Source: Nageia nagi
Lineage: Eukaryota; Plantae; Pinophyta
NCBI GenBank assembly: GCA_050084985.1
Contig: JBITNC010000001.1
Span: forward strand, 205,158,001-205,222,000
Direction of reading: 5' to 3'
Length of the DNA stretch: 64,000 bases
A program made the translations under genes and the position numbers. The notes beneath the pieces are model-generated. The model did no database searches, was not told the origin of the DNA, and saw only the letters and a list, made by a program, of their open reading frames with translations. Shown one piece after another: positions 9,404 through 55,060 of this stretch; position 1 is the stretch's first letter, and the number at the start of each line of letters is the position of its first letter.

Positions 9404-9567
9404 TTTAAAGAGGATACATATTTCATATAACTTTTGAAATGGATGAATGTAGAGATAAAATAGATGAAAATAAAAATATTGGAGTTTATTACTAATGACC
9501 TAACAACTCAAGGAAAACAAAAATACTTAAAACTTAAGAGTCAACCATGTCCTTTAAGATTTTCATC

Positions 9568-21012: not shown

Positions 21013-21215
21013 TACTTCACTTGAATCTTTTGACAACATCACATGATACATACTTCTCTTGACTCTTTTGATAACATTATCCACTGCATACTGCACTTAA
21101 CTCTTTTGATAATATCACCCACTATATACATCACTTAACTCTTTTGAAAATATCACCCGCTATATACTTCACTTAACTCTTTTTACAATATTACCCATTG
21201 TATACTTCACTTAAC
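21013..21215. repeat. 38-bp tandem repeat x5.3 (TACTTCACTTAACTCTTTTGATAATATCACCCACTATA)
   Basis: Units counted directly. Confidence 0.95.
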
Positions 21216-21230
21216 ACATATCTATGTACA

Positions 21231-21340
21231 ACAAGGCTTAGAAATAACACCCAAAAATAATACAAGGCCCAAAAACAATACTCAAAAATAATAAAAGGCT
21301 TGAAAACAATGTCCAAAAATAATACAAGGCCTAGAAACAA
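21231..21340. repeat. 31-bp tandem repeat x3.5 (ACAAGGCCTAGAAACAACACCCAAAAATAAT)
   Basis: Units counted directly. Confidence 0.9.
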
Positions 21341-21359: not shown

Positions 21360-21489
21360 TAATAGGGCCTAGACCAACTGCTCCAAAATCCATAATAGGA
21401 CCAAGATTGACTACTCCAAAATCTACGATAGAACCTAGACTGACTACTCCAAAATCCATAATAGGACCTGGACTAATAGCTTCAAAATT
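21360..21489. repeat. 33-bp tandem repeat x4 (TAATAGGACCTAGACTGACTACTCCAAAATCCA)
   Basis: Units counted directly. Confidence 0.9.
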
Positions 21490-27401: not shown

Positions 27402-27634
27402 TTTCAACATGTTACTTTGTAGGGATTATGGGATAATATCCTAGAACATGATTATAACTCCTATTAAGCTATTTTCAATTGAATTTTAGTGGATTTACGT
27501 AACATTCCTTAGCATTCATTTTTGTTCCTTCATGTAGCCTCCTTGAGCTCAATTTTAGTTCCTCATTAAGGTTCTACATATTATACTACAAATTTACTTA
27601 ATGAATCACATTGTTGTATTCTCAAATTATTTCA
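27402..27634 (+). mobile_element. 5' LTR (5'-truncated) of the split Copia element
   Basis: Colinear with the 3' half of LTR 49098-49527 (AATATCCTAGAACATGATTATAACTCCTATT...CTCAAATTATTTCA). Confidence 0.85.
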
Positions 27635-27637
27635 TAT

Positions 27638-27767: not shown

Positions 27768-28846
27768 ATGGATTCTAGAGTTAATTCTCTTCTCATACCA
27801 GAATTCAATTTAGAGGATTATGAATATTGGGCATTGAAAATGAAGCATTTGCTCATAGGTAAAGGAGTGTGGGACATTATTAATGATGACTATGTGGAGC
27901 TATATTGGGACACACTTCCTCAAGCTGATAGGCCTACTAAAAGAGTGGCCAAAAATAAAATATGTTTTGTAATCTATCATCTCTAATTAGCCTTGGACAA
28001 GAGAATGTTCCTAAGGATTGCTAGTTGCAATATGACCAAGGATGAATGGAAGGTATTAAAACATGGATTTAAAGGAAATGATCAAGTGAAGAAAGTGAAG
28101 CTTCATACTTTAAAAATAGAGTTTGATAATCTAAAGCAAAAATAGGAAGAGAAAGTTGGTGAGTATTTTGTAAGAGTGAAGACATGTTTCCAAATGATGG
28201 AGATACTTGGAGAGGAGGTAAAAAATCTAATTGTAGTGAAGAAAGTGTTAAGAACACTTATTACAAAATGGAGCCAAAAAACTATTATGTTTAAAGAGAA
28301 TAAAAATACGACAACTCTTAATATTGATCAACTTATTGGTTCCTTGATGTCTCATGAGGAAAGGCTTGCTCCACTTTCAAATGTTGGGAGTGTGGAAGAG
28401 AAGGATTCAATTCTAAAGAAGGTGACACTACTTCTAATGGTAAATGGAGAGCTTAAGGTAGAGAAAGAGGTAGATATTATAGAGGAAGAGGAAGACGAAG
28501 AGGAAGATGAAGAGGTAGGAGAGGTGGCTTCCCAGGTAGAGGAGGATTCCAAGGAAGAGGAAGGGAGGATTCTTCAATAGGTGAAAAGTGAGACAAATAA
28601 TTTTAATATTGTAATAAATATAGACACTATGAAAGGTAATGTAGATTGAAGGCTTCCAAAGAAGGAGACCAAAGTGCAAACTATGGTGACAAGTATGGAT
28701 CCTCCACCTTGTTCTTATGTTATGCCCATTAAGCCCAAAAGCTGGATAAGGCATGGATCCTTAACATGAGTTTCTTCAACCACATGAATAATAAGGGAGA
28801 TTTATTTTATACCATAGATGACTCATATAAGTCCAAGATCACACTT
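27768..28846 (+). pseudogene. Copia gag and start of protease (5' part of the split element)
   Basis: MDSRVNSLLIPEFNLEDYEYWALKMKHLLIGKGVWDII, a UBN2-like region (VKKVLRTL...LIGSLMSHEERL), an RGRG-rich tract, zinc knuckle CNKYRHYER*C, then NHM...DDSYKSKITL. Confidence 0.9.
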
Positions 28847-29252
28847 ATGAAATATTTTAAAGGGAAAATTGGAAAATCAAGGCTATAATTATAGATTTTC
28901 ACTTTTTGATTTGGCTAGTATAGTGCATGGTGGGTCCTGCCTTAGAGAAATTTTTTTATAAAAAAAATTATATTCTTGACCCATGTAGCTAACCTTTTAA
29001 CATGATTTCAAATATATTAGCCCTTTTTTCTAAACTTAATTTAGCTCATTCACCTTGAAATTATAAAAATAATAAATAATTCTACCTAAATAGTCACTTA
29101 TAGGTTAACAAATATATACATATCAAACTTCCCTATCCATATGATACCATGCCACCATATAGTGATATTGGAATCATATTTCTAAAATTGGATCAAAACC
29201 TATATCTGGTATAAATCTAAATTTGGGTTGGAACTTACATTGGGAAGTTGTA

Positions 29253-29730
29253 ACTAGGTTGGAAGCATTTCCTCTATAATCAAGTTATAAGCATTTCCTT
29301 TGCATCCAAGTTAGAAGCATTTCCCTTACAATTGGGTTAGAAACATTTTCTCTATAGTCTGGTTGGAAGCATTTCCTCTACAGCTAGGTTGAAAGCATTT
29401 GTTTTGTATCTATGTCAAAAGCATTTCCTCTATAGCTAGTTTAGAAGCATTTCCTTTACACTTGGCTCAAAAGCATTTCCTCTATAGCTAGGTTAGAAGA
29501 ATTTCCTCTACATTCATGTTAAAAGCATTTAGTATACATCCAAGTTGAAAGCATTTCATTTGCAATTGGGCCAGAAACATTTCCTCTACATCTAGGTAGG
29601 AAGCATTTTCTCTATAGCTGGGTAAGAAGCAATTCCTCAAGCTAGGTTAGAAGCATTTCCTTTATAGTTGGGTCAAAAGCATTTCCCTTGCATTCAGGTC
29701 AAAAGCATTTCCTTTACACCTAGGTTAGAA
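29253..29730. repeat. 26-bp tandem array, ~18 copies (CTAGGTTAGAAGCATTTCCTCTACAG)
   Basis: AAGCATTTCC recurs every 26 bp. Confidence 0.95.
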
Positions 29731-29904
29731 CATGCATCTATTCATAACCTACCTCCATTTGAAAAGCATTTTCTTGTAACTTGCATCCTGATAGGAAGAA
29801 ATTTCTATATCTGATTCAAATGAAATCTCACCCACTCATAAGAGTGATGCAAAACTTAGTGGTAATAGAGGTGTAATAGGATGCACTTATACAAAACCTA
29901 AAAG

Positions 29905-32900
29905 CATTTTGTTATATTTTAAACATTGAAGATAAATTGGGAGGCAAAATCAACTTGTCCACTAGTATGCAATATCTAAGAAATTTCTTAGACACCAATG
30001 AACTAATAGAACTTAATCTAAAAGAAAATTGATATACATGGTCCAAGAGGAGAATAGGGAGAGGTTTTATCTTGAGAATACTAGACTAGATGATGGCTTC
30101 CTAGGAATGGTTGGACCAGTACCAAAACTATGCCTTATCCTTTCTACTAAGGATTTCTTCTGATCATAGACCAATACTTCTTACAATGGAGAATATGCAA
30201 AATATAAAAGCTCCTTTCAAATTTTAAAACATGTGGATGTCACATAAAGACTTCAAGGATATGCTCTTTGGGTGGTGGAAAATTAAAATTCAAGGTATTG
30301 CTATGTACAAACTTACAAAGAAGCTTGATGAAGTGAGAAAAAATTTAAAAATTTGAAACAAGAAAGAGTTGAAGAATGTTCACTACATAAAAGCTTAGCT
30401 GAAAGAGAGAATGAAAGAGATCAAACATGAAATTCTTAGAATAGGTCACACAATAGATTTGGAAAAGAGGAAAGGTAGCTATTGGTGGCATTCTATAATA
30501 CCCTTACCCAAGAGGAACAAATGTGGAGACAAAAACCAAGAATTACATGGATTAAAGAAGAAGATTGAAACACTAAATTCTTCAAAGTTACCATAATGAG
30601 AAGAAAAAATTTCAATAAGATTGTTCAAATAAAAAAATAGGATGGTAGTGTCATAATTAAGGAGAAAGAGATAAAAAATGAAGCTGTCTAATTCTATGAA
30701 AAGCCTCTATTAATAAACTAGAAGGATAGTACACAAGCTATAAACAAAATCATTCAAAATATACTTAGTATCATAACTCATAAGAAAAATGAAGCACTAA
30801 AAAAGAAAATCACAAAAGAGAAGTGAAGAAACTTTCTTCCTAATGGAACCAAATAAATCCCTAGGACCTAATGGGTTTCTTGTAGGATTCTTTTAGAAGA
30901 ATTGGGAGATTTTAGAAAAGGAAATTTGATATGCTATTAAAGAATTCTTCACAAAGGGTAAATTGTTAAAATAGTGGAACAAGATGGATTTATTGGATTT
31001 ATTTTAGATAGACAAATAACAAATGGTATTATTCATATCCATGAAGTCCCACACTCAAACTATAATAAAAAATACCTACTATCATTTTCAAACTTGATAT
31101 GAAGAAGGCTTATGATAGGTTCAGTTAGAAATTTTTTAATAGAATGCTACAAGCCTTTGGATTTGGGAATATTTGGAGGAAGTGGATAACTGAATGTATT
31201 GTAACATAAATGTTCTTAGTTCTAGTTAATGGAGAAGTCATAAGCTATTTTAAATCATCAAGAGGTATAAGGAAAGGAGATTTGATATCACCTTATCTCT
31301 TCATTATTTTGGTAGAAGAATTGGGTAGAATGATTAAACATGCTAAGAAGGAACATATAATCAAAGGGGCAGTACTAGGCCCAAATTGTAGTCCAACCAC
31401 ACACCATCAATTTGTGGATGATACTATATTTATTAGAAAGGCTAAGAAAGGGGAGGTGATAAGGTTCAAAAGTATTCTTGAAATGTACAAAAAAGCTTCA
31501 CATCAAAGAACAAACCTCCAAAAAATAAAGATTTACTTCCTTAATTATTTTTATAGAGTTAAAAAAAATATAAGCAGAATATGGGGGTGTCTTGAAGGAT
31601 AATTCCTAACCAATTACTTAGGAATGATTTGTTTGTTGGGAGACTAAAAGCTTAATACTAGAATAGTCACATTTAGAAAAATTCAAAATAAACTCATAGT
31701 ATGGGAGGAAAAAACTCTTACCTATGCAGGGAGGCTTACCCTTATAAAAATAGTTCTCCAAAGTGTTCCCATATATTTCGCTATGATGTTCAAATTCCTA
31801 ATTACTATTTGTAACAAAATTGATTAAATTTGTTATATATTCCTTTGTACCAAATAGGAAAATAAAAGAAGCTTATCCTTGGTAATGTGGAAGACCATCT
31901 ATAGTGAAAAATATTTGGGAGGACTAGGTCTAGGGAAAATGAAGCAAGTTAGTCAAGGCTTGAGAGGTAAGCTTATTTAGCAAATTTCTTATGGTAATAA
32001 AAGTGAATGGGTCTAAATTATCATAGAAAAGTATATGATGGGATAATATGTCATTCTAAGAATCCAAAATCCCCCTTATGGCTCTACAATATGGAATGGT
32101 CTTACCTTAGCTAGATCAGAGATCATGAATCATATCATGTGGGATGCAAGAGATGGAAGTAATGTTTATATGTGGGAAGATACTTGGTTCAAGGTTAAGC
32201 CCCTAAACCAAATATCATAGTTTTAAAAAGGAGGTAGATGTACCCAAGATAATCAAGGACAAACTATTGATAATTATTATGATAATTCTCTAAACAAATG
32301 GTTTTTTCTCAAGCCTAAAGATGAAAAATGTAGAAGATAGCTACAAACCCTTGAACAAGAAATGAATACAACCAAAATTATCATGAATAATAACATAGGA
32401 AATTTTAAATGGGGTAAAAAAAGAAGGCAACTATATGGTTAAGAAAGCTATTAAGATCATGAATGAAGATGATTTGCAAGAACCAGGAAACCAAATTTGG
32501 AGGCCTAAAATTATACCAAAAATAGCCTTCTTCCTTTTTATAGTAGTTAGAAATAGATTGATGACTATTAATAATATGAAGAAAAGAGGGATCATAATGG
32601 TTAATAGATGTATCTTATGCCATCATAAGGAAGAAGATGTTAATCATCTTTTCATACACTATGAATATACTCAGAAGTTTTGGAGAAGAATGTGAAGGGA
32701 AGGGAATATAGCTGACCTTAAACCCCAAACCATAAGTAGTTTCATCCAATTCATGAGCTCCAATTCTAAGGATAAGGAAAATGAAAAACACATGTGTTAC
32801 TCTTATTGCCCATGTTTGGTGGTAAATATGGAAGCAACATAATACAAGGATCTTTGAGGGCAAATATAATAAAGTGGCATAGGTTTATAAAAGTAGTATT

Positions 32901-35350
32901 TATAAGGCTGATGAAAATATAATGCATGTTGGAGAACCTAAAATATGGTACCCTTTTTTAAAAAACTCTTTAAAATTAATGAAGTCTAACTTAGGAAATA
33001 GTTTTGTCTTGGGAAAGTGTAGGTAACTTCATAGCCAGACAAAGGAAGATTTGTTTATTATGAAGGCTAAAATTTTAAGGTACGATTGCAAGGTTGGTAT
33101 GAGTGACTATGAAATGATAGAGATAAGTTAGAAACATGTGGGAAGGTAATTCAATTTATTCACATGAGTTAGATATCATTTTGATGAGAAAATATGGCAT
33201 GATGGGGGAAGGCAACTTAATTCATCAAATGAATTAAATGCCACTATGATAGGAAAAGCATCCAAAACTTTATAGCCAATCCAAAATAAAGAAGAATCAA
33301 CATAAAGAAAACAAATAGGTACAAGATCCATAGAAAAATTGTAATGGGGGCTGCTCTAGTTTTTATTAAGCCCAACAATCCATAAAAGGCAAAAAAGGAC
33401 CTTAACATATGGCACCTGGTTTGCAAGGGGGACTTGAATACATTCATAGAAAATTGCAACGGGCCTAATAGGAGATTGGAAAACATGATAGTTCATAGTT
33501 GGAATAATGGGAAATGCATAATCCATGGCAAAGAGATCCACTTTATAGCTAATACCATAGCTCAGGCTACTAGTCTCCCAAATTAGGGGAAATAAATCAA
33601 ACACAACTCCAAGATGATTAAAGGGGAGGATATCAAGAAATTTGAAATAAGGGGTATCCATTTGCTACCTTATCAAACAATATACTATAGTAGCAGCCTA
33701 TCATAATCATGGTATAAACTATGTAAGGTAATCATGAAGTATATCACACCCGATGGTAGGCATACAAAGGTTTATATTCATCACATAATTCTCCTCTTTT
33801 GATTCAACTAGGAAAGAGTTAATTTGGAGGATTTTATGAAATTTTCCATGTTTATCTCAATGGGGAAGTGCAAAGCTAACCCCAATTTGATACCACTCCA
33901 TCAAATAGTAATGCTACTTATCTACAAACATGCCTTGTCCATGTAAGTCCCATAATAAACCCTTCACCACCAGATGGAAGCATTGGAAGAAGAAGGAAAT
34001 GATACTCAAATTGGCCATGAAGAGGAGGAAAAAAATGAATGCCCATTGTAGTTTCATCAATGAAGAAGGAATGAGGATGAGGATAACTAAATGCAAAATT
34101 CTTTTCAAGAAGAAATAACATACAATCAAGAGTATTGTTATACAAATATAATTCACACCAATAGCTCAGAGGCTAACACCATGAATCCTTGCACCTATCA
34201 AATTGAAGCCCTGAAACCCATAAGAAAGTGGACTCATGCAAAATATCATGCAAACTAGCCCAAAGGTAAGATTGACTCTTCTTTGAATAACCCTATTAAT
34301 ATATAAGATAGTCCTACTAAGTTAGAAGATCACTTCATTGGAAAAGTTTACACTAGAACCTAATCTAGAAAGAAGAATTTAAATAGGCCTAAGGTCAATG
34401 ACTCCTCATCTATATCCTAGGAGGTATCTAATTCTACCACTTATTTTGACTAAGAACCTCAACATCAACCACCCCCTCCATTTTATCCCCAACATGCCAT
34501 CCTTCTCTTTCTACCCATTCTCACCATCCCCTAATACCCAAGATTACCCTCTTCTTTTTCTTCCCTAATTCCATAGACATTATAGGAAATTCAAGATTCC
34601 TACTATTATATTTTCCTAGAACATCCACAATCACATGTTAGCCAAGGTAAATCACTATAAATGTATCCATATCACCTTGTTCAAATCCCTCCTAGTGTTT
34701 CAGCATATGCAAGGAGCATAAGATCAAAATAAGGAAATCATGTTTACTAGAGAAATGTGGAAGCTCATATATTGTAAATTCTACAAACATGGTTATAAGA
34801 AGTTGCAAAGGATAGTTTAAGTGGAACCTAATATGGAGGAGAGAAGATTAGCAACCTACTAGGAGTTCATATTCACTTCTATTCATGGAATTATAGCATA
34901 GTTTAATGAAGGAATTTACTTCGCACCAAAGCCCCTCAAGGCATGCAAACTAGGCGACAAGGAAAATCTCCATTGATAATGGTAAACACAAATCCTATTT
35001 TTTGGAAATGTTGTTTTGAAGACATGTTGCTCAATAGTGTAGAGACATATGGTTTTTCTTGCTATAAAAGGATACTAATCTTCAATATTCAAATGCAGTG
35101 CTTCATTTTGTTATGTACTTACATAGTTTTTGTTATAAGGTTTTTCTGTTATGTAAAGGATAAGTATTATTTAAATTCCTAGTCTATAGTTTATTTCCAT
35201 ATATGATCCCTTGTATATGATGGAGGAAAGTTATCCTATTAGGTTTTGCTTTTCTAACCTTAACTTTGTAAAAAGTTTCAAGAAACCTTTCAAAATTCTA
35301 CCTCTTTTTGATTAATATCAAATATAATCATCGATTTTAATAAAAAAAAA
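29905..35350 (+). mobile_element. 5'-truncated L1-clade LINE with a long 3' region and poly(A)
   Basis: EN tail (YTWSKRR..RILD..SDHRPI), RT (SLGPNGF, KLDMKKAYDR, RGIRKGDLISPYLF, HHQFVDDT) and zf-RVT (RCILCHHKEEDVNHLF). A-tail at 35342-35350. Degenerate TSD-like AAAACCTAAAA/ACAACCAAAAA. Confidence 0.9.
33344..34980 (+). pseudogene. Extra ORF in the L1 3' region, homologous to ORF 15440-17036
   Basis: MGAALVFIKP...IWHLVCKGDLNTFIENCNG...SWNNGKCIIHGKEIHF..TIAQATSLPN*G...WYKLCKVIMKYITPDGR...VNL...PLHQIVMLLIY, followed by acidic and Pro-rich tracts. Confidence 0.75.
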
Positions 35351-38282
35351 CAACCAAAAAAAGTGCAACAACCAACTCTTATCATAGAAGGTACACTCAA
35401 TTTAAATTTGTATTTTAAGTTGATTGTAAATTGTACTTTTTAATTAAGATAGTTTAAAATGCATTAAAAGTAGGAATATTTTGTTACAAAAAATACATCA
35501 GATGTCACTCCCCTTGAAGAAGACATATCCAATGATTAAATATTAGATGAATTTCAATTCGATATTACTCTCAGTGAACATGAACCTAAAAACAAGAGTG
35601 ATGATAATAAGAAAGGATTTCAAGAACACACAAGTAGTAAAAAGTCATCCAATAGAAAGAGAAAAAGAAAATGGAATGTAGGTAGAACATTTCAAGATGA
35701 ATGAGTTGGAACATATCCTTTAATAGAATTTGTAATGCCTAAAAATAGTTTGGAAGAACCTATGGAATGCAGATGTGTATGTTGCAATTGGAAAACAAAA
35801 AAAGAACATAGAATTCAACTAAAAAATGATAAAATTTAGAAACATTATGGGAAAAATACGAGTATGAAGAAGTAGATGGTAAGTGAATAAGGGTTATTAA
35901 GTAGAAAGATAAATTAAAATGCTTACATCTAAAATATCAAGAGATGTATGAAAATAAGATGAATAGAAGGAAGAAGATTTTTGAAAAAGGTGAAATAATA
36001 AATCAATATATGGATAAAGTAAATTAGGGAAATTTAATTGCTAATACTGTACAATTTTTTGTTGTATTTCAAATTTTAAAAAATGGTAGGCCTATTTTAG
36101 ATATTTCATTATATAAAGAATTTATCCATTTTGTTGGTATAAATTTATTTAAATTAACACAATACCATTTTTTTGAGAGTAATGAATGGGATATTTCAAA
36201 TTGTATTACGACGATTGAGATTCAAGATTTACGAGCAAAGGTAAGAGATGAAAAAAATATTTCATTATCCATATATGAAGTTGCTACTATTGATCATACT
36301 TCTTAGGTTTGATTACATGTCTACATCTTTCAAGAATCTAAATACATGAGAAAACCTCCCTTTCTATCAATCTAAAAAATATCTCAAAGTTCTAATGCTA
36401 AAAATTCATGCAATCTTGTTGTTAGTTGTCTAAAAAACATAGTAGGAATGGAAAATTATAAAATAGCTATGAAGTTGATATGTGTTTGGGCTGATAGCCC
36501 ATCTGTAATGTAGGAAAATAAAAATGGACTTTGTGTTAAGCTTTAAACAACATATTCTCCGTACATGATAGCAATTCATTGTATGGTACATAAAATGAAT
36601 CTTTCATACAAAATAGTTAACAAATTTGAAATTATTGCTAAGGTGGAGGAATTGGTTCATGATATTCATTCTTATTTTGTACATAGTTTAAAGAGGATTA
36701 TACAATTTCAATAATTTGTTGAGGGTATAATAGATGGTAAAAAAATGCTTAACAATATTGATATTAGATGTATTTCTTTGTATCTTCCCTTACTAAGAGT
36801 ATGCAAAGAATATATCTCATTATGTGGGTATGTGTGTGGAAATTGAATAAAATTTGATAAAGCAAAATATATATTATACATGTTAATATATAGTTAAATG
36901 TTACACACTTTATGTGGAATTCTACCAATGTTGAAGGAAATTCATAATGTAATGAAAATAGCTCAAACAAGATACATCTATATTGTTGATTTTGTAAGGG
37001 CAAGAAAACATACTTTTCTTGTTTTAGAAAACTTGTATATTTGCAAGGATAACTTTATGGGTGATAGTTTTGAGGCATGGCAATCTATCATTAATTTGAA
37101 ATATCCAAAAAGTTTCTTGAAATTTGATATTATGGGTAAGCTTGGTATAATTGTTCATGATAAATTGACCCCAATGCATTGTTATTATAGGAGAGATGAT
37201 ATTTATGTTTAAGGTTTAGAAGAAATGTCTATAACATCACAACTATTTGATCATCTTATTTTTTATGTAAGAAAAAAATTGCAAAAATTATTAGAAACAA
37301 TGTCAAGTGAAATAAGAGATCAATTTAGAAAGAATGATTTGGTTGAGTCAATAAGTATTGTGCACCCATATTTTTGGTCAACAAATAGTAGTTGCATGAG
37401 TTCAATATATAAAAAATATGTCAGTAATCTTATGAAACACTTTTTTTGATAGTTAAAATCAACAATGTTAAAATTCTAAGTATTTTGGACAAAAATAGTT
37501 GACAGATCAATCAAACCAATTCAATGTTACTATGTATGAACAATACAAGGAGTTGAGTGAACCAAATGAAAATGGCTTAATAGTATAATTATGGGGTAGA
37601 CTATATCTAAGTACAATAATGTAGATACAAATAAGTTAATATTTTTTCCTATATGAATTATGCTAGACTATGATTTTGGGATCTATTATAGATGAATGGT
37701 TTTTTAGTACTTTGGCTTATATCAAATCAAAAGCTCACAATAGATTGAATAAGAACTTGAAAATATGTTTAAGAATTTATACATCTAAATATGCTTTGGA
37801 AAATTTTCCATATGATAGAGTTATTTCTACATGATATTCAATTGCAAACAAGAGATGAACATCAAGGGCTAAATGTGCTAAAGATGCTAAAAATAGGGTA
37901 GTGGAAGTAATTCATAAAGATGAGTTTTACCAACAAATTATTGAAAAGGGATTAATTAATGTGCAAGAGAGAGATGAAGAGGAAGATGAAGAAAGTGTAG
38001 ATGTGTAATTTTCTTTTAGTTTTTTCAATCAAATCCATTGTTGGTATAATAATTTGCAATTTCATACTTTTTGAAAGGTTTAATGAAATTATTTGATATT
38101 TTTGAATCTCATATTTTCTATATGTAATGTGTTATTGAACTATTATTTGAATATACAAATGATTTTTTTTACTTTAATTTTCAAACTGTATAATATGATT
38201 AACATGTAGTAAACTATTAATGATATTTTTATTTTAATTTTTTTTTATAAGTTAGCATTTGTAAACTATATGTGATATGATT

Positions 38283-38582
38283 AGCATGTAGTTGCAATCA
38301 GACCAATTTTATAGATGGGCTAGATGCATGTTATTATAGCTAGGTGTTGCATCTGGCTTGACTATGATAACATGCATCCATCTAAGTTTCAATGACATGT
38401 AGTCAAAATGATTGCATGTTGTTGTAGTTAGATTAGATTCATGTTGTTATAGCTAGGTCAAATGCAACACTCAGATGTAATTACTTGCACCTAAATTGAC
38501 TACAACAACATGCATTAGAACCAACTGCATGTCATTGCATCTGGGTCAAGTGCAAGTAATTATAGCCAGACCAGGTGCATCT
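38283..38582. repeat. Degenerate ~26-bp array in mixed orientation, between the convergent genes
   Basis: TGCATGTTGTTGTAGTTAGATTAGA-type units and reverse units (GACTACAACAACATGCA). Core example TGCATCTGGGTCAAGTGCA. Confidence 0.8.
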
Positions 38583-38932
38583 CTTTTTTTTTTAAGTAGA
38601 AAACATAAATCATCATATGTCATACAATAAGTCAAAAAAATTATGAATTTAAAATAAATTTTATTAGGTACTAAAGAAAACTAATGCTAAAGAAAACTAT
38701 TACAAATTTACAATCAAGTAAACATGTTTTTAGTATTCTAATTAGATTGAACAACCATAAGTTTTAAAGGATAATAACACTAAAACCATTTACCAATTAC
38801 CATAATCCATGATTTACACACATGTCACATAATTCAAAATCATATAGGAAGTTATATACAAGTATTTTATATAAAATGGTAAGCCTCTCTCATTACTAGT
38901 TTGCCAAAATGATAATATTTAACTAAAACTAA

Positions 38933-41900
38933 AAATATCTCCCACTTCAAGCTAGTGGTTGTTGAGCTAAGGTTGATGCTTCTACATACTTTTGAGGTTC
39001 TTCTCTCTTAAATACATTTTTCTTTTTGTATATTGATAGCAAGTAAATCCATTTTTGAAAGAATATTATGCTCTTCCTTCATTGGATCAACATTATTGGA
39101 TTGCATAGATGAAGTACTCTCATCTTTCTTCTTCCATAGAATCTTGTAATCCATGTTGTGTTCTTGGATGATCAATTTTAAAAGTCAATTTTCCTATTGA
39201 ATTTGAGCAACATTTTTCTTTTGCTTTATCAATTCAAGCAAGAAGGCTTTTGCATTTTTGAAATAATGCTACATCACTTTCATTGTGTTCTTCAAGTTTT
39301 CATATCTTGCCTACATTCAAAATTAAAACTATTGGTATAACTTAAAAACATTATGAAAAATACCATGAAAATATAATTTTAATTCTAATTGTTAAAACTT
39401 ACATCAGCTCTCTACTTTTCTAAGTTTGATGTATTCAACAATTTCTGGTCATATGTCCATTTATCAAAATAAACTTGGGCTTCAACATTGATGTTTTCTA
39501 GCCTATCCAAAGCCATGTTTAGAATGTCATCAATTGTTCTCTTTTGAAACTTAAAACTTCCTTCCTTTGCATATTTCATCATAGAATTGATGAAAACTGG
39601 GTTATGTGCAATGATCTCATACAACTTGTCTATATGATTATGATTGTGATACCAAACATTTATCTCTTGGGTAAATATTTTTGCCCATTTCTCCCAAATA
39701 CTTAATTTTTCCAAATCTAGAATGAGAAATTAATTAAAATTTTTCAAGGTAGCCTCTCCCACATCAATTGAATTTTTGAAATCTAAAGCTTCATAGCTTA
39801 ATTCTTTGGTTGTCTTTTCCTAAGATGTCAAGGGTGTTTCTTATATTTTGGCTATCGTAGTGGTTTCAAGCTCTTTGGACACATGTTGCTCCCATCCAAT
39901 TACATCTTGCACCTCAAATATTAGTATACTAGTAAGAACAAGTTTGCCAAGATATTATGAAAATATATTATCTAATCTTGAATTTTCCAAGCAATCAATC
40001 TCTATATTGAGCAAACTATCATTTGGCACCTCAAGGCCAAAATTCATATGGGGAAAAGTAACATGGCTTTAAACTTTAAAAATCTTTTGATGACTTGTTC
40101 CTTATGCTTACATTGGTTGAGAGATACTTCCTCTCATTATTTATTGTTATGATGGTGGTGGTAGTGATAATAAAGATTTACCCCATCATAGAGGTATTTT
40201 CTAATAGGTTACTACATAAAGAATTGCAAATTTAAATCCACCAAATATTTAAAAAAATGAAAAATAAAAATAACTTAATTAATAAAAAATTTATACTAGG
40301 TGCTTGAGATGATGGTGTACTTGGAAAATCCTAATTATTCATTCCGTGAATGAATACCAATAGGGGTATATCATGAATCGTTATTTCAACAACCAAATTT
40401 GCATCAAAGAATTTTAATTATTTACTAAAATAATTCTAGTTCAACCACATATAATTTTAATATTTACCTTCCTTATCCTACATAGGTGTTAGATCCCTAT
40501 ACTATGGTTATTGTTGTTCCTTTACATTATTATTGTTATGTCAGCTAGTGTCCTTTCATTGTAGTGGCACCCCTTCAACTCCTATATATACTAAGGAGGT
40601 ATTATCATTTGGATTGTCTATTGTTATGTATTTGATGTAATGTAAAGGAGGTTGCCACCTCAAAGTGGCTTATTATTACTGATTTTATCTCTTATTCAAG
40701 GCATTGAGCTCTTTCTCTTGTGATTTTATGCTATTTTGGGAACTTGGTTCATAACATTTGGTATCAGAGTAGATGATTCTACTGTTTCATTGCTCAGAAC
40801 TAGTCATCATGGAATTTTTGCTACCAATTTATTTTTGCAAGGTTTTAGATTCTGAAATTTATTGGGTTTTTAGAAGACATGCCAAAGACATTTTAGTTCA
40901 AATTAAAGCTCCTAATTCACTATGTTTTTCAAGTTACACTTGGGGGAAGTTAGGGTTTGTGACTAGTCTCAAAAGCAGGTCAAAAATAGGTGTTCTAGCT
41001 AAAAAGTGTATATCTGAAGTATTACAGCTCCAAACTTTGTGAAACCTATTGTATTGGTTATCATATGGATTGAAGTTTATATGGTACAATTTTCAAGGTC
41101 TAGGAATAACAGGTGACTCATGGCACTTCGTACAAAGTTTGGTCTTCTAAAAAATCCAAAACTTAGCACATTTTGGGAAAGTTACAGCCAATTTCTCTTG
41201 GAATATCATAATTTGATGTAACCTATGGCATTGAAAATAAGACATCTAAGGCTACTACATGTAGAAATTTTAGAATCTAAAGGGATAAAATTTTATATTT
41301 ACATCAGTTGGAATTTTGGATAATAGAATAGTCTCCAAATCACGGTTTAAAAAGTAATACTCAGTCAAAATGCCATCGAAAAAAATTGCTACACCAACTA
41401 GACCTCCAGAGGGTTCATCCATGACTATAGAAAAAAGTGAAGACATATCCTTCTAAATATCCCAATTGGAAGAATTGGTAAAAGGGTGTGTAAAAAAGGG
41501 TGATTTGGAGGAATTAAAAGGGGATTTGACAAAAAGGATGGTAAGATCAATTGAAGAGTTGGCAAATAATATGGATCAAAATATGGAAAAGATTGTTCAA
41601 TTCATACAAAAACCAGAGGGAAAGATTCCTAAAGATGTTGATATGGCCCAAGGTTATTAGGAAAATAATGATATTATTTAAGGAGATAAACCCTTCATTA
41701 ATAAGCCTAATTCAGGAAGATATGCTTCTACTAATGGAAGTAATCAAGCATGGTTCTCAAGGGGAATGCAACTCCCCAAGATCAACATGAGGAAGTTTGA
41801 TGTAAAGGACCCCATGACTTGGATATTTCAAATGGAGCATTTTTTTGATCTACACCAAGTACCAACATCACAAAAAGTAACTATTACATCCTTATATCTA

Positions 41901-44275
41901 GAGCCTGAGTAGGTTGTATGGTACTAATGGCTTTGTGAATGTAAAAAGGGTTCTATTATATCTTGGTCCATTTTTATAGAGGAACTGACAGCCTACCATG
42001 AGGATGTTAAGAATAATTCCTTATTTACTCAATTGACAAATCTAAGGCAAAAAGGTTCAATGATGGAGCACATTCAACAATTTCAAAAGTTAAGTCTTAG
42101 AGTGAATGACATACAAGGTGATAGATTGTTGGATCTCCTTATGGGAACCTTAAAGGATAACATTCAACATGAGTTGCATCTATTTGAACCAACATCCTTA
42201 GATATGGCTTTTAGGATGGTAAGGAAGGTTGAAAGTAAAAATATGGCAATGGCTACTAAATGGTTTCCCTTGAACACTTATAAAGAAAATAATGTTCCTT
42301 CTTCTCACTTACCTAAACTAAGAAAATAATGTTCCTTCTTCTCACTTACCTAAACCTACAAAATTGACACCTCAACAAATGGATGAAAGATGAGCAAAGG
42401 GTCTATGCTTCAATTGTGATAGCAAGTATAGTAAAGGACATAAATGTGTGGAGAAGAAAATTATTCTACATAGAATGTGAAGAGGAAGAATAAGAAGAAG
42501 AAAAATCATCCACATTCAAAGAATTAGAAGAGATTACTACTGAAGAAAAGACTCCCACCATATCTTGTAATGCATTGGCTAGAATCACTACTCCTCAAAC
42601 TACACTTCTAGAACTCAACGAGGAAGGGAAAATTATATTGGAGCCAGAAGTAATCACTGAATCAAGAATCCATAAGTTAAGAAATCGATCAGTGTCAGAG
42701 TATCTCATTAAGTGGAAGAACCTACCTATTGAAGATTCCACATGGGAAGACGAGAATTTTCTACAGAAGCATCTAGAACTACTCAAACATTGAGGACAAC
42801 ATTTTTTTGAAGTAGAGGGGCATGTTAGATCCCTATACTATGGTTATTATTATTCCTTTACATTATTATTATTATGTCAGCTAGTGTCCTTTCATTATAG
42901 TGGCACCCCTTGGAATCCTATATATACTAAGGAGGTATTATTATTTGGATTATCTATTTTTGTGTATTTGATGTAATGTAAAGGAGGTTTCCCCCTCGAA
43001 GTGGTTTATTATTACTGATTTTATCTCTTATTCAAGGCATTGAGCTCTTTCTCTTGTGATTTTATGCTATTTTAGGAACTTGGTTCATAACAATAGGTTT
43101 CAATTTTGGCTGTTGAGGAGGAAGGGAAGATTCCTTGTTAGCTTCCTCTTCATCTATCTTAAAATCAATGACATGCATATGTCTTCTAGTCCTATGATGC
43201 ATTTGAGATTCAGTTCGAGAACTAGGAGCTTGAGATGCTATGTCAAATTCTCTTTAAACTTCATGTAGCCATTTTCCTCTCATAGTATCCTCCCTTCTAT
43301 CCTTCATAGCATCAACTTTTTTCTAAAATAAAATACATTTAATTAATACTATGAAAATAGATAAAACATTAAGGTTTATAAATTTTGTATTAAAATTGGA
43401 TGCAATGAACCTATAGTTAGATAAGAGATAGACCTATCTTCACAATCATTTGATGGTGTGATGTAGGTGTTGGTGTTTACTTCAAATAAAACAATGCCTC
43501 ATAGTATAGGCAAAGAATGAAATTATTTGTATTTACCTCACCCACACCTTTTGTTTTTACTCTATTCAACTCATTCTTTATCTTATATGAAATATAGGAT
43601 GACTAGTCAAATCGAGTCCCATTAAAGGAACATATAAGATAAGATACTCCCCAAAAAGGCATATCACCTATTTTTCTCTAAAGAACCAATATGAAAATAA
43701 AAAAATCCATGCAATCCCTAAAAAATTCATTCTTGATAGAAGACATCAGAAGATCCCTTTTCTTCTTGTGGGAAGTCACTACAAATTAAAAAACAAAATT
43801 GTGAATATTTAGAATGAATTAGTTGGATGAAAATTAAACTATAAAAACAAAATTGTATTCTAAAACAAAATTATACTTGTAAGAAAATATATATTCACAT
43901 TATAATTCTCATTAAGGTAGCATTTATCTTTATTGTTGATGAGTATACTAGAATGCACGAGCTCTGCTCCTTGAAATGGTAATCTGGTTAAACAAGCTAT
44001 GTATTCAGCGTTGAAGGAGAAAGTAAAATTTTCTTCTTTTATTCTATAGTCACTAAATTAGTGTTTGTATCATAGTTCTTAATAATATTATTCAATAGTG
44101 CATTCTTTGTAAGAATTTCAAGCATATAGATCAAACAATGTAAAGATGGGTTGTGTATCCATTCCTTTTCTAAATCATCCATTTATTCTAATAGAGGAAT
44201 TAAATCATTGGTTAGGTGATACTTGAAGTAAATACCCTTTCTCCTACCTCTAGATCCATTGTAGCTACTCACCAT
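38933..44275 (-). pseudogene. Spliced accessory gene of the DNA transposon: PMD/DUF1985-like N-terminus, coiled-coil C-terminus
   Basis: ATG at 44275 with a TATA at ~44390. Translation MVSSYNGSRGRRKG...LLNNIIKNYDTNTNLVTI..FSFNAEYIACLTRLPFQG | ...GTRFD*SSYISYKIKNEL. GT-AG introns of 85-98 bp at 43779-43876, ~43323-43410, 40212-40296 and 39311-39402. Includes ORF 39412..39714. Interrupted by the Gypsy at 40487-43092. Confidence 0.7.
40487..43092 (+). mobile_element. Complete non-autonomous chromovirus (Reina-like) LTR element: gag plus chromodomain only
   Basis: 270-bp LTRs at 40487-40756 and 42823-43092 (TG..CA, ~16 mismatches by eye). TSD ATAGG on both sides. PBS TGGTATCAGAG at 40759. PPT GAAGTAGAGGGG. 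gag LPKINMRKFD..., KGLCFNCDSKYSKGHKC. Chromodomain EYLIKWKNLPIEDSTWE. Confidence 0.95.
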
Positions 44276-44481
44276 TGCCTAATTATTCAATCTTATATTC
44301 CTATTAAGTTCCTAACCCTATTTCTACAGTTCCTTTCCTCCCTATAGAATGCTCTCTATTCAAATGAGCTGAATTAAACAATAGCTAGGGTATATATAGA
44401 GAGAAAATTAATTACACTATGGATTCAAATATATTTCATCAATGTATTAGCATATTGGAGGAAGTATTTAGTGCTTGGTGT

Positions 44482-44920
44482 AGTTGGTATAGATGCATTC
44501 TGAATGCTACCAGTTTGGATGCATTCAAAATGCAACCAGTCTAATTGCATTCAACATGTAGCCAATCTGAATGTATTTTGAATGTAATCAACCTAGATGC
44601 ATTCAAAATGCACTAAGTCTAGATGCATTTAGAATGCAACCAATGCAAATGCATTTTGAATGCATATAAATTGACTACATTATGAATACATCTGGACTGG
44701 TTGCATTCTAAATACATCTAAATTAGCTACATTTTGAATGCATCTACACTATCTACATTTAGAATGCATCTAGATTAGTTGCATGATGAATGCCACTAGA
44801 CTGGTTGTATTTTTAATGCATCCAAATTGTCTACATTGAGAATGCATCTAGATTGGATACATTATGAATGCATTTAAACCAACTACATTATGAATGCTTC
44901 CAGATCGACTACATTTTGAT
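44482..44920. repeat. 26-bp tandem array, ~16 copies, second half inverted
   Basis: Units TAGATGCATTCAGAATGCAACCAGTC run to ~44655, then the reverse complement GACTGGTTGCATTTTGAATGCATCTA. Confidence 0.9.
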
Positions 44921-45089
44921 TATAGTTTATACATTTGAACATGTGTTATGTTTTTTCCATGTATGAAATATCATCTCATCTATAATATTATGACATTTTT
45001 ATCAGTTTGAATAATAATTCCTAGCTAAAACCCTTCTATAAAAAATTGAATTATCTTTCATTTTAACATAATTTCTTATTTATTTTTAG

Positions 45090-45650
45090 GTAGTGCTTAG
45101 TGAAGAATGATCCCTATGAAGAGTATTTGCATCTTTTCAACCCATTCAAGGATAGAGTTTCAAATAATGATAAAGATTATTTTAAAACACTATCTAGAAT
45201 AGGAAGAAATTATCCATAGATAAAATATATTAGAGGTTTATTACAATTTCAATTAGATATGGTCATTAACAAGTTGGCAATAATTTTATGGCTTTATTTT
45301 AAGTCAATCATTTTTCATCATTTTAAGTTTTACATATATAATTATTTTTACTTAATTAATTTGAAGGAAAGTATGGGCAACTTTTATTTTAAAACTCTAT
45401 TCTTGAACATTTTCCAATGCTAGTTCATTCTTCACTTCCATGCAGGTGTGGAGCATATCTTCCCCTATGCCCTATGATTATAATAACCTAGAGGAGACAT
45501 CTCCCATGGTGGAAACAACTACAATGAAAAGTCATTATAGTTGCAGAGGATCCCAATCCTATTCTAGCTAAAGGTTGAATATCATATTCTATGGGTGAAG
45601 GAGATATTGTGGTTTCCAATCATATTTGTAATATTCAATCCTACTAAGCT
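45090..45650 (+). pseudogene. Possible third spliced gene of the DNA transposon, function unknown
   Basis: Acceptor TTTTTAG at ~45089, then CLVKNDPYEEYLHLFNPFKDRVSNNDKDYFKTLSRIGRNYP*IKYIRGLLQFQLDM. An AT-rich intron-like stretch at ~45262-45366 follows, then a further weakly open frame. Confidence 0.35.
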
Positions 45651-45777
45651 TAATTTTTGATCAAGTTGTTAGATTTCCACTTCTCCCTTGCACCTATATC
45701 TCAGGAAGTTTGAGCACTACCAGGAGACATCATCCATGGTGTAAAGACTACTTTGCACTCAAATTTTATTCATTAAA

Positions 45778-45802
45778 TGTGTGTGTGTGTGTGTGTGTGT
45801 GT
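45778..45802. repeat. (TG)n microsatellite
   Basis: Direct reading. Confidence 0.95.
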
Positions 45803-46046
45803 ATAATTTTTTTTTATACTAAATGGTTTATGCTTTCAAAAATTTACTATCAACTATGATTTTTAAAACTAAAACATTTTTGTCAACTTTTTACATCTAT
45901 TTTCCAAAACTGTTCAAAAGTCACCTATTAATTTACATTATTTTTGAAAACCCACCTTCAATTTGAAACATGTTTTGTCTATGTTTTCCTAGAATTTATA
46001 TTTCCATTTTAGATGAAGGTTCTTAAAATTTTCTTTGATCACACTT

Positions 46047-49097: not shown

Positions 49098-49527
49098 TGT
49101 TGGAGATTTAAATTTTTTATTCTTTCTAGAATGAAATATCAATGTATTTCATTATCTATGGAAATGGTATCACACTACTGTAACACTGCACATTTTTTGG
49201 AAACAAAATCACATTTTTAATCATCTTGCATATTTTGTCAGAGTTTTTTGGTAATTATGCTATTTTCTTTAGTTTTTTCTTAGTTGCACTTTGATTCAGC
49301 ATCTATTACTTCATAGGGATGATGGGAGAATATCCTAGAACATGATTATAACTCCTATTTAGTTATTTATAATTGGATTTTAGTGGATTTATGTAATAGT
49401 CTTTAGTATTTATTTTTGGTCCTTCATGTAACCAACATGAGCTTAGTTTTAATTACTCATTGAGGATTTGTATATTGTACTACAAATTTAGTTAATGAAC
49501 AAATTATTGTGTGCTCAAATTATTTCA
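49098..49527 (+). mobile_element. Copia 3' LTR (430 bp) preceded by PPT AAGGGGGAG
   Basis: TGTTGG...TTTCA. Matches 27402-27634. Confidence 0.9.
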
Positions 49528-49599
49528 TCCTTATCACCAACCTATCATTGTGAGGGAACTTAAATTTATCTATTATTTTATTATAAAATATATGATTGG

Positions 49600-52500
49600 A
49601 GTGGTGCTAGGTGTTATCCCATAGGTAATGGAGGAGATAATAGAAAATAATATGGTGGATATAAAAGACCAATTGATGGATAGGAAGATCTAGTACCATA
49701 AATTAAGAACCTAGAATTGAAGTAAGCCCAATCCCAGGATCCGTATAAAATTTCTTATGAATTGATATGTACTGGGCCCATCCATCATGATATTCCTATT
49801 ATACAATATCCTTATAGGTATTATCTTCCTAATATAGACCCATTCAAAGGGAAAGAGGATCATTGAGAATATTTACACAAGTTCAAAAGTTGTAGTGCCT
49901 ATATGATTTCTCATGATGATGTATTGATGCCCTAAACTTTTACTATAACCATCAAAAGATCAAATTTGGATTGGTATAAAACATTTCTTAAGAATATCCT
50001 GACCACTTATGTATAACTTGTAAACAAATTGCTAGATCACTTCCCCATTAATGCCAAAGACAAGTCATACATTATTGACCTCATGCAACTTCAATTATTT
50101 TTGGATGAATTTGTTACATACTTTTGGGTTTTTTGAGGACTATCATCACTAGCATGGATTACAATCTCCCATCCAAAGAGTTAGTGAGAATATTTAGTCA
50201 AATTTGTATTCCAAATACAATAACATAAAACTTTTAAAGAAGTTATTGCACAAGTGGTGTAGATTGAAAAGGTCAAAATCTAGGATGGAGAAATCAAGGT
50301 TAGGAAGTGAGAAGGGTAAAAAAAATGTAAAAATAACTAAATAAAAAATAGAGAGGACCTCCCAAGTTAATAAGGTCTCTATGGAAGTAGCTTCTCAATA
50401 AAAACTTTCCCAAGTAATGCCAACAATAGTTACGACCCAACTAGAAGAAACTAGCAACAAAAGGTAGCCCCATAAAAAGTTTGATGATATAGTATTCACT
50501 ATTATAAGGGAACCTATATTGGAATATGTATTAAAAAGGGTCAATAATCTTGATCTGATATGATTACTAAATATAAAACTATATATCCTAGAATACAAGC
50601 AAACCAAGTACTACTTGGAAAATGAGTATTATGAGTACCATAGACAACATGGTTATGATACTAATATTTGTTGTTCCCATAAATATGTCATTTAGAATTC
50701 AATAGATGAAGGGAAGTTCCATGTGCATAGTCCTTTGAATGTAGTTAATAAAAACCTTAGAATTTTTGGAAATCCTTTATTGCATCATCATTTAGGGTAA
50801 CATTCCAAAATGATCTTTATTGTAGGTCCTTCAAATTAGGTCACTAACAATAAGAGTCATCTTCAACCTTTTGTTGGGATGATTAACATAACTAACCAGG
50901 ATTAATGAGCATAGAAAAGGAACCAAGCATTATAATATCAATATGTTTCTCCCTCACCTAAAAATGTGACCATGCCTCTACCATAAATTCCATATATGCA
51001 ACCAAAAAGATCTTTGGTTGAGAGGATTTCAACCAATCAATTAAAGTATACCTTGGTAAAATTATCTTTATTTGAGCTATTACAAGAATCAAAGCACCAT
51101 AAGGAAGCTATGAATCAAATTTTGTAAGTGATTAAGTTAGACCTTATGAACATTGGAAATTTTTACCATATTTATGGGGAATATACATTCTTTCATCCAA
51201 CCAATAATATCCTTTTATGGTCTAAAATCAAAGAGTATAAGGGACCATATGGACCTAATCCTCCACTACACATCATCATTTATGTGGATTAAAAACCCTT
51301 TAAGAGGGTATTAATTGATAATGGATAATTAATAACAATCATTTCCACAGGATACCATTAGCACTTGAATTTTTTTCATGCCCATATCATTACATTATCA
51401 TTGAAGTAAGGGTCTTTAATGATACTTTATATCCTACCCTAGGGTCATTGGTACTTCTTATCACTATGGAGTTAAGACTTTACCTATTTATTACATATTA
51501 TTGAAGGTAACATATTGAAGGTAACATAATTAAGTAAAATATAACCTTGAATAGCCCTTAGATCTATGAAATTCAATGTGTTTATTTCATATTATATGGT
51601 TTTATTGAGTACAATTTTGATGGGTTGGTACATTGTATACCAATTTATGATGATCCTTTTTATATTGCAATTATATTTGGATGTCCATTGAAGGAGTCAC
51701 TCTCCCATATTGACATATTATACTAGCTATAATAATATGGGTATCATCCAAGAGATCAATTTGGTTAGCTTAACCTAAGCAAATGCAATATGATAGTGAT
51801 AAAGGAAAGGATCTTGCACTGTCATCATTGCATTCTAAGAAATAGGAAATACTATCAATTAATGAATCAGTTGGTAATGTGAGTATGTTGTCCTTGCCCT
51901 TGAAACCAAAAATAATACGCTCTTCACCTCTTGAGATAAATGCATGATAACCAAATCATCCATGATAATGAAGGTCTTAGGAGGAACATGCCCATAAGTT
52001 ATATTACTTATAGAAAGCCACCCAATCTTACTAAATTCATGAAAGTACTAAAGAATTCAACTAACTAGTGACTATTATCATATAGGTACTAGAGAATGAA
52101 AAAGATGAAATATCAAAAGGGGATATAGACATATGTCATGTTTAGGTTTAATTCTCTAGCCTAGGAATAGGGGGAATATGAAGTGCATGATATCATTTTT
52201 AGTATCCCTTCAACTCATGAAGTAGGCATCTCCCTATCTCGCATATGATAATTGGACAGTTTGTTGTTGGTTCCTTTCAAGGTTCCACCGAACCATCCAT
52301 AAGTTATTTATTTATGTAGGCATAGGAATCCTGATCTAATTCCCATTACCATCTATATCTTCATAACCATTTATTAGAACTTTGGATTTCCTATCACCTA
52401 GAATACAAAGTATCATACAATAAAACTTTTCTATATAGTGCTGGATAGGTCATGGTCTAGGTCTATATGAGAAAGATCCTCACTATCCAATTGAGATACC

Positions 52501-55060
52501 ATATAAAATTCCTAGTGATCGAAGGGGTCTTGGTTACATTTATCACCCCATATATCTTATCCATATGAAGTTGTTGATATGCAATAAGTACATATTGGGT
52601 ACAACAACGTGGTCATAATCTTAGAATATGTAGCAAATCAATTAAATGATGTAGAGTCGATGGTATTGATCTTGATGTACTTATTTATGAAAGTGTTACA
52701 TGTAAATACATATATTCAATATTAAGTAGATGAATTTGATGAAAAGGATGGATTTTTGCAAACCTAGGAAAGTTATATTATGATCCTCTTGAATGGTCCA
52801 TATTTCTTACAAGAACCAAGTTGATTCCCTTTAGCTATGATAATAATTACTACATATGAATATGAGGATGATTATATCCTACACAAGAGCTATCTTTCCC
52901 CCAAATGGACTCCATTAGATAAGTATAAAATGCCCCTCCCTATATCCATTACCAAAAATGAGAGGCAGTTACCTCCTCTCAAGGTGAGAGTGTCTTTATC
53001 GTTGTTAGAACCTTGGCCTATGCTAAATACACCTCCTTTTCCCATCTACAATCAATTATAAAATTTCATATTATAAGATCCTAATGATCATGATGAAAAA
53101 GATAATACCATAGGTGTGATCATAAAATATGTAAACACAATACATGTATCCTATAAATCCATCAGTTATAGACATTATACCTCTTTTTGATGATTATCTC
53201 CTACTTGCATATAGATAAAGGAGTTATATGCTAACAATGAATATTCATAGAATGATATATATGCCATGAAAAACCCCTTTTTCTACCTTCACATACCATA
53301 CCTGCAAGTATAGATATATCACACTAGTACAAATTATCAATGGTACCTACATGATCACACAAATTCTATCTTGATGGTGATAATCAAGGAGACTAAATCT
53401 TCTAAATTAGGAACAAAATCTACATACTCACCTAGTTATCTTATGAAGTGTTTTGGATCTATTGATAGTTTTGATTGGTGGAGGCCAAATGAGTTCATTA
53501 GACCACAAATAGCTGATATAGGGGATGTTGAATTCAACTTGTTGCCTAAGTATCTAAATATCCATAATTTTAAAGATGTAGATATTATTTTTATGAGGTC
53601 CTACATGTACGTTACTATTTTATAATATGAATAATAATATCTTTAATATAATATCATTGATCAAAATTAAATCCATATACCAAGCCAATTAGATCAAGGG
53701 TCACACATGATGATTGAGGAAGTAATATACATCAACTTGAGTGATGACCTTGTCAAATCCCATATTTAGCAATTGGGTAAGATTTTGATAGAAAAAGAAT
53801 GATAAGATCTCACTAGACTCATAAAGAACAAAAGAGAAGTACTTTATTAATATTCTAAATATATGTCAGGATTAAACTCTAATTTCATAGTCCATAACCT
53901 ACAACATAAAGAAGATGCAAAGCCTATAAAAAAATGCAAAGAAAAATGCACCCCACCATTGTAGTTATAGTAAAGGAAGAGTTGTAAAAGCTATTAGACA
54001 TCCAGTTTATTCAATTGATTTATTATTTAGATTGGATGTTCAATATGATACTTGTTAAGAATCCTAATATAAATATACACATTTACACAAACTTCCAAGA
54101 CTTAAATCATGCTTTCATGAAAGATGACTTCCCCCTACCTAATATCCACACATCGGTTAATGCTACAATATGGTATGAAATGTTATAATTAATGGATGGG
54201 TTATCAATATATAACCAAATTAATATTTTAAAGGAGTATCTAAATAAAAATACCTTCATTACTCCTTGGGGAATGTTTTGTTACAAGTTCATGCCTTTTG
54301 GCCTCATGAATGTGGGAGCCACTTACCAAAGAGAAATGACATATATCTTCTATGACTACATACATAACATGGTGTATTATCTTGATGACTTGTAAGCCAA
54401 GGCTAAAATGTGAGCAAATCATACAAATCTATTTTCTATAATGCTTGATCGACTCTTGTAACATAAGGTGTGCTTAAACCTAAAGAAGTGTATTTTTGAC
54501 ATCACATTAGGGAAGTTGCTTGGCTTCATTATCTCAAATAAAGGAATAGTGGTATATAATAACAAGATAAAAGTTATTATAGATATGGACACACCCTCAA
54601 ATCTCAAATAGTTGAGCACATTACAAGGAAAAATCCTAGCTACTTAGTTCTTCATATCTCAGCTATTTGATAAGTGTAGATCCTTCAATCACTTGTTGAA
54701 TAAGGATACCACTTTTATTTGGCTGATGCATGCCAAGTAGATTTTGAGGATATCAAGATATACTTAAATATCCACCTATGCTTTCCCCACTAAGATATGA
54801 TGTCCTATTATTATTGTGCATTTCTATAATTGATTTCACATTGGGAACTATGATCATGTAAAATATTGGAGCAAATAAATAGAAAGTGATCTACTACATT
54901 AGTTGCACTTTAGTAGTTATGAGACAAGTTATGTTTATATGGAAAAGTCATATATCATAGTCATGTTTGCAACCAAAATGTTGAGATATTACATATTGAT
55001 TCATACTATATTTTTCATAACTAAGGTGTACCGATTAAAGTACATGATGAATTGAACTAT
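49600..55060 (+). mobile_element. Decayed Tat/Ogre-type Gypsy gag-PR-spacer-RT-RH, truncated in RH
   Basis: gag PFKGKEDH*EYLHKF and YYEYHRQHGYDTNIC. PR KRVLIDNG (~51300). RT KDDFPLPNI, MDGLSIYNQI, TPWGMFCYKFMPFGLMNVGATYQR, YLDDL, GKLLGFII. RH IYYIS..LRYYIL. Confidence 0.9.

Follow-up and report, generated by a model that had tools for sequence, protein, structure and literature searches.

A DNA transposon with an intron-rich accessory gene of its own was identified in a 64,000-nucleotide stretch of the conifer Nageia nagi (GCA_050084985.1, contig JBITNC010000001.1, positions 205,158,001 to 205,222,000 of the forward strand), hereafter referred to as the window and numbered from its first letter. 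The transposon contains a transposase gene, a six-exon accessory gene, a further spliced gene (gene 3) and three arrays of 25-26-bp repeats. The accessory gene, on the minus strand, comprises ~770 codons from 44275 or 44182 to ~38945; the evidence supports its being the element's own gene and not a stray host fragment, and the copy in the window is a pseudogene. By analogy with the VANC proteins of VANDAL transposons, its product may have been an element-specific, array-binding activator, a reading to which we give somewhat less than an even chance.

The ends of the transposon (28847 and 46036) are considered fixed because empty-site contigs exist: contigs of three of the four public DNA runs connect 28836 to 46037. 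The interrupted copia-type open reading frame (ORF) breaks off at 28846 and continues in frame beyond 46036; ten letters are directly repeated at the junction (28837-28846 and 46037-46046), and the flanking copia long terminal repeats (LTRs; 27397-27635 and 49289-49528) are 84% identical. The target duplication is readable as 8, 9 or 10 bp, each reading leaving 8-10 of 20 terminal matches in decayed ends. A duplication of 9-10 bp, if real, would be unusual for a hAT-type transposase; hAT elements have short terminal inverted repeats and usually an 8-bp duplication (PMC12730594).

An initial annotation had placed one multi-exon minus-strand gene at 38933-44275, with regular GT-AG introns, a TATA box and an ATG. 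Four such introns (98, 88, 85 and 92 nt) were found, as were TATATA at 44398 and the ATG at 44275, which shares its frame with the ATG at 44182, one stop lying between them. The gene itself was recovered; 2.6 kb of the interval (40487-43092) proved to be an overlooked nested LTR element on the opposite strand. Introns 1, 2 and 5 are in phase with their flanking frames, and the AT content of the introns is 0.83-0.86 versus 0.63-0.72 in the exons. A strict intron pattern, defined only after the gene had been inspected, matched three times in the gene region, compared with a mean of 0.005 (maximum 1) in 1000 shuffles and no match on the opposite strand. Intron 1 is bridged by one contig among the contigs listed, and its donor is retained in loose ends of runs X6 and X7. 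Contigs of relatives are ungapped in exon 2, which shows it to be a single frame; from 43778 to 43540 this frame has 2 stops versus 6 and 8 in the other frames. Coordinates of all features are collected in Table 1.

The accessory-gene model (9 pieces, 736 positions from 44182) carries 19 stops (X) and two frame breaks. A break in exon 5 lies near 40069, and the acceptor of the 68-nt intron 3 is decayed. The frameshift in exon 1 (near 44030-44040) belongs to this copy alone, as an extra base at 44030 is present in two contigs per run across four runs. Among the 40 of 159 differences from relatives that were listed, 36 are exonic, comprising 28 replacement and 8 silent changes, a neutral-looking ratio that fits the decay expected once this copy had died.

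Table 1. Features of the conifer transposon and its nested inserts (window positions)
Feature	Position	Strand	Remarks
Whole DNA transposon	28847-46036		17,190 bp; ~9.1 kb without the two nested inserts; host is a copia-type pol ORF
Array A1	29254-29730	+	26-bp units, core AAGCATTT; near left end; 18.3 copies (Tandem Repeats Finder, TRF)
Nested LINE-type insert	29924-35355	+	ends approximate; RVT_1 E 4e-14, zf-RVT E 6e-19; extra ORF 33410-33945
Decayed transposase	35500-38010	+	start approximate; 29-47% identical to N-terminal part in locus L001
Array A2	38290-38590		between 3' ends of transposase and accessory genes; period ~25, inverted GCAT pairs
Exon 6	38945-39310	-	coiled-coil end and tail (predicted); 33% identity to Taxus P0020 282-370, 37% to L001
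Intron 5	39311-39402	-	92 nt, GT-AG, phase 0; 106 nt at identical position in L001
Exon 5	39403-40211	-	linker, then conserved ~110-aa helical domain running into predicted coiled coil
Intron 4	40212-40296	-	85 nt, GT-AG
Exon 3 remainder (short), intron 3 (decayed, 40467-40400), exon 4	40297-40486	-	boundaries less certain
Nested LTR element with chromodomain, internally deleted	40487-43092	+	insertion point in exon 3 of accessory gene
Exon 3	43098-43322	-	charged linker
Intron 2	43323-43410	-	88 nt, GT-AG, phase 0
Exon 2	43411-43778	-	second half of candidate PMD-like helical domain; single continuous frame
Intron 1	43779-43876	-	98 nt, GT-AG, phase 1
Exon 1	43877-44275	-	ATG 44275 or 44182; first half of candidate PMD-like domain
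TATA-like box	44393-44398	-	TATATA at 44398
Array A3	44480-44920		26-bp units, inverted TGCAT/ATGCA pairs; between 5' ends of accessory gene and gene 3
Gene 3, spliced (gene or gene piece)	45091-45760	+	divergent from accessory gene across A3

Searches with the C-terminal exon of the accessory gene returned 12 related proteins at E<=0.001, five of them at <=1e-10, with a best value of 1e-32. Ten relative clusters were looked up and consisted of four partial hypothetical proteins of Taxus chinensis, four Logan and two JGI/IMG fragments; the Taxus model P0020 continues straight across intron 5. A metagenome scan of 187 candidate stretches yielded one further locus (L001, 3490-5813), in which the N-terminal part of a transposase and the final two exons of an accessory gene belong to the families found in the window, the exons at 28-37% identity. 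Intron conservation among copies, a point left to be checked by the initial annotation, is seen in the last intron, which L001 keeps at the position and in the phase of intron 5. In two blocks selected by protein similarity, identity with L001 at the three codon positions is 0.47/0.53/0.39 and 0.53/0.73/0.40, lowest at the third position, as purifying selection would give. L001 also contains a 24-bp array whose core, GATGCTCAT, differs from that of the window arrays. A 45-bp coding repeat was observed at the start of its transposase.

The accessory gene is attributed to the element because it lies within the fixed ends, its family accompanies this transposase family in L001 too, an intron position is conserved and divergence is greatest at third codon positions. 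Its position inside these ends and the linkage in an independent contig also speak against a captured host fragment. We regard it as improbable that a host gene, or fragments of one, was captured and travels as passive Pack-type cargo that does nothing for the element. In conifers, transposons are reported to capture exons very commonly (PMC13477047), and both the intron-rich structure and the 28:8 ratio would suit such cargo, but the relatives, all unnamed or hypothetical, occur in multiple copies and are partial, the family travels with one transposase family at ~30% protein identity with a third-position excess and a conserved intron, and neutral decay is in any case expected of a dead copy. 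The convergent arrangement of transposase and accessory gene described in the initial annotation holds for this copy. In L001 the accessory 3' exons and the transposase are on one strand with an apparent internal deletion between them, so that convergence may not hold generally.

Assignment of the N-terminal ~200 residues was less straightforward. The peptides quoted in the initial annotation are present: exon 1 encodes IIKNYDTNTNLVTI and FSFNAEYIACLTRLPFQG in two different frames, and exon 2 contains GTRFD*SSYI..KIKNEL, though the statement that such patterns typify PMD/DUF1985 domains is borne out by no library. Of the claimed likeness, what could be recovered is a weak chain of motifs. Using PMD-C motifs reduced from four Arabidopsis sequences (PMC7156037, supplement 9), the top-scoring chain of two motifs along the gene model fell on exon 1, with a spacing of 30 versus 26 aa, and was reached by 30 of 3000 shuffles; a three-motif chain was reached by 27 of 3000. 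The tryptophan site proposed in the initial annotation (W-site) lies at a distance of 102 aa, compared with ~112 aa in PMD-C. A second comparison employed two retroelement extra ORFs of the window, 33410-33945 (+) and 16976-16440 (-). The former is found on the 3' side of the LINE-type (long interspersed nuclear element) insert and the latter within a gypsy-like region; they match each other with E 4e-18 and have no Pfam match (source on retrotransposon extra ORFs: PMC11728184). Scored with the two-ORF profile, the accessory N-terminus stood above 1000 of 1000 shuffles (13.5 bits) and, of 1110 pieces, exon 1 was the best match apart from the ORFs themselves (E 0.005), in a comparison picked after the likeness had been noticed. 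The second ORF alone gave no significant match to the N-terminus (89 of 1000 shuffles), and hhalign of the N-terminus against the ORF profile returned a probability of 3%.

For the C-terminal part, fold prediction of P0020 with 20 sequences produced a 93-residue helix in addition to three short ones (mean predicted local distance difference test (pLDDT) score of 71, >90 at residues 101-150), and the helix model matches generic coiled coils only. The C-terminus of the accessory protein is accordingly predicted to be a coiled coil, and the coiled-coil tail of the initial annotation thereby gains the backing of a relative's predicted model.

The transposase retains a CxxH motif as HCMVH, the remaining motifs being decayed. 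Its DDE spacing, HCxxH and hATC-like C-terminal block are presumably of hAT/ZNF862 type, for which the tools gave no confirmation; Pfam, PDB and database searches with the transposase found no match, neither hAT nor MULE. The CxxH motif is common to several transposase superfamilies (PMC4763223). On balance, the element is likely a hAT-type DNA transposon. All three arrays lie in non-coding spacers, have a common core, (A/T)GCAT, and are CG-depleted; [AT]GCAT[TG] occurs at 25-47 per kb within them versus 2.6 elsewhere, and the autocorrelation of A2 at period 25 is 0.46.

VANC proteins remove methylation and bind short motifs that are tandemly repeated in introns and in intergenic and terminal regions (PMC5735166, PMC10398659), their DUF1985 domain resembles MAIL1 (bioRxiv 2024.09.27.615353, bioRxiv 2024.04.02.587720), and for VANC21 dimerisation through a coiled coil is predicted (bioRxiv 2024.04.02.587720). 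Because the layout of the conifer element is VANDAL-like, an anti-silencing role is proposed for the accessory protein. It would dimerise through the long predicted coiled coil, its weakly PMD/DUF1985-like helical domain would bind the 25-26-bp arrays of the element, and this binding would maintain expression of the element, as VANC maintains that of VANDAL.

A number of results weigh against this proposal. With single-frame pieces of 24-533 aa as Pfam queries (cut-offs E<=1 or 10), no exon piece matched PF10536, PF09331 or another relevant family at E<=10, the pieces being short and decayed. Pfam, PDB sequence, Atlas and fold searches with the N-terminal ~200 residues were likewise blank, a result of limited weight because the queries were short decayed single-frame pieces and no intact relative was found; DUF1985 (PF09331) and DUF287 were matched neither by the window pieces nor by the 12 C-terminal relatives, which had no meaningful Pfam match at all. 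The second (central) PMD-C motif alone is at chance level (2262 of 3000 shuffles), the W-site scores 1 against the WG-A-LA-LYR motif (12 if its stop was W), and across the window the motif chain of the gene is not significant, ranking second with 75 versus 78 at an unrelated place, a score of 75 being reached by 2 of 60 shuffled windows. The N-terminus matches the conifer retroelement extra ORFs about equally well. The linkage between accessory gene and transposase is seen at two loci, with differing gene orientation. Most CHG sites in the arrays have decayed, with 1-2 of 5-13 left per column, so this dead copy has no protection footprint. Finally, a transposase can itself bind the repeats of its element and activate that element (PMC4763223, bioRxiv 2026.08.24.746577), in which case the arrays need no second protein.

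The blank library searches would be explained if the gene were a selected accessory gene whose N-terminal domain has no kinship with PMD/DUF1985, or originated in an extra ORF of a retrotransposon with a different role, the likeness being a shared hydrophobic helix pattern. The score of the N-terminus with the retroelement profile (despite the low hhalign probability) fits this explanation, as does the fact that, by eye, nothing resembling the C-terminal half of PMD-C follows exon 2. We nevertheless judge it unlikely. Gypsy retrotransposons themselves encode PMD-A (PMC5418596), so that kinship with retroelement ORFs is compatible with a PMD-type fold, and the PMD-C motif and retroelement-ORF tests, independent and both weak, point to the same 60 residues. 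A PMD-type fold for the accessory N-terminus is marginally favoured.

A different function is conceivable for the coiled coil. The accessory protein could be a transposition cofactor like MURB or TnpA, a coiled-coil partner of the transposase that helps transpososome assembly or targeting while the transposase reads the arrays. The two-gene convergent layout of this copy and the length of the predicted coiled coil are consistent with such a role; MURB binds MURA (PMC12973397), hAT transposases use subterminal repeats (PMC4763223), and A1 is subterminal and immediately upstream of the transposase. However, two of the three arrays sit between genes inside the element, as in VANDAL and not in a subterminal arrangement, and the weak PMD-like motif chain also speaks against a cofactor. 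This explanation is a tentative one, yet comes close behind the array-binding activator because transposases read their own repeats and self-activate and because MURB binds MURA.

Among described systems, VANDAL21/VANC21 of Arabidopsis (PMC5735166, PMC10398659) shares with the conifer element the organisation of a multi-gene DNA transposon with an intron-rich accessory gene. VANC21 and the accessory protein both have a conserved domain, a variable linker and a predicted coiled coil, and both elements have tandem arrays of short motifs in terminal and intergenic spacers, varying between related elements. In contrast to VANDAL, which is a Mutator element, the conifer transposase looks hAT-type judging by its motifs and the host is a gymnosperm; unlike VANC, the accessory protein lacks a DUF1985 or DUF287 Pfam match, its candidate domain is N-terminal and its function is proposed by analogy. 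PMD proteins, comprising gypsy PMD-A, genic MAIN/MAIL1 and MULE-fused PMD-C (PMC5418596, PMC7156037, bioRxiv 2024.09.27.615353), share the association with transposons, and the first two PMD-C motifs find a weak match here in the same order. They are described as angiosperm-only (PMC8616336) and as residing in gypsy elements, in host genes or in fusions to MULE transposases (PMC8616336, PMC5418596). Where PMD is described on DNA transposons it is fused to a MULE transposase, whereas here the gene is separate, the candidate region spans only ~200 aa and WG-A-LA-LYR is poorly matched. Fungal TET+ hAT7 elements (PMC12730594) are also hATs with a second gene of possible epigenetic role, but carry a TET/JBP dioxygenase and 7-bp duplications, the accessory protein having no recognisable enzyme domain. 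Maize MuDR (MURA/MURB) and CACTA TnpA (PMC12973397, bioRxiv 2026.08.24.746577) likewise pair a transposase with a separate helper gene; TnpA binds and activates element repeats and, as for the accessory protein, a coiled coil is predicted (bioRxiv 2026.08.24.746577, bioRxiv 2024.04.02.587720). They belong to other superfamilies, and Pfam scans detected no similarity to MURB or TnpA. A literature search found no description of such a conifer element. The gene is classed neither as PMD nor as VANC, the arrays being the sole defining feature found.

The third gene contains an in-frame intron (45277-45445) with a GC donor here and GT in four of four runs, and had no Pfam match; a further intron is possible at 44961-45090. 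The LINE-type insert is bypassed by contigs in three of four runs. The nested LTR element (2.6 kb) has 270-bp LTRs that are 94% identical, a 5-bp target duplication, a primer-binding site at 40759 and a Pfam Chromo match (E 8e-9), and is approximately bypassed by one contig each in runs X6 and X2. It looks lineage-specific and younger than its host transposon, since its depth is hundreds to thousands in runs X1-X3 and 1-11 in X6, a run that covers the remaining transposon. The window as a whole has a GC content of 25-38% and nested transposons. Other short tandem arrays outside the element (9242-9404, 21013-21215, 21231-21340 and 21360-21488; units of 25, 38, 31 and 33 bp) are possibly ends of other transposons, and two 1.5-kb segments that are 76% identical (23494-25013 and 51513-53045) are probably copies of one retroelement family.

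Even without an anti-silencing function, these results define an unannotated multi-gene transposon family, pieces of which are now filed as hypothetical Taxus genes. Sequence-specific anti-silencing has been described for the angiosperm VANDAL, Spm and AtMu1 elements. It is conceivable, although we would not count it as probable, that a conifer hAT lineage independently acquired a stand-alone PMD/DUF1985-type gene together with co-evolving internal arrays, that is, VANC-like anti-silencing outside Mutator and the flowering plants. If true, a gymnosperm hAT with a PMD-like regulator and matching arrays would extend both anti-silencing and PMD beyond angiosperms, and would provide new protein-motif pairs for targeted demethylation. 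It would also mean that PMD-type domains predate angiosperms and moved between retrotransposon extra ORFs and DNA transposons, and would thus bear on whether PMD originated in retrotransposons or in host genes.

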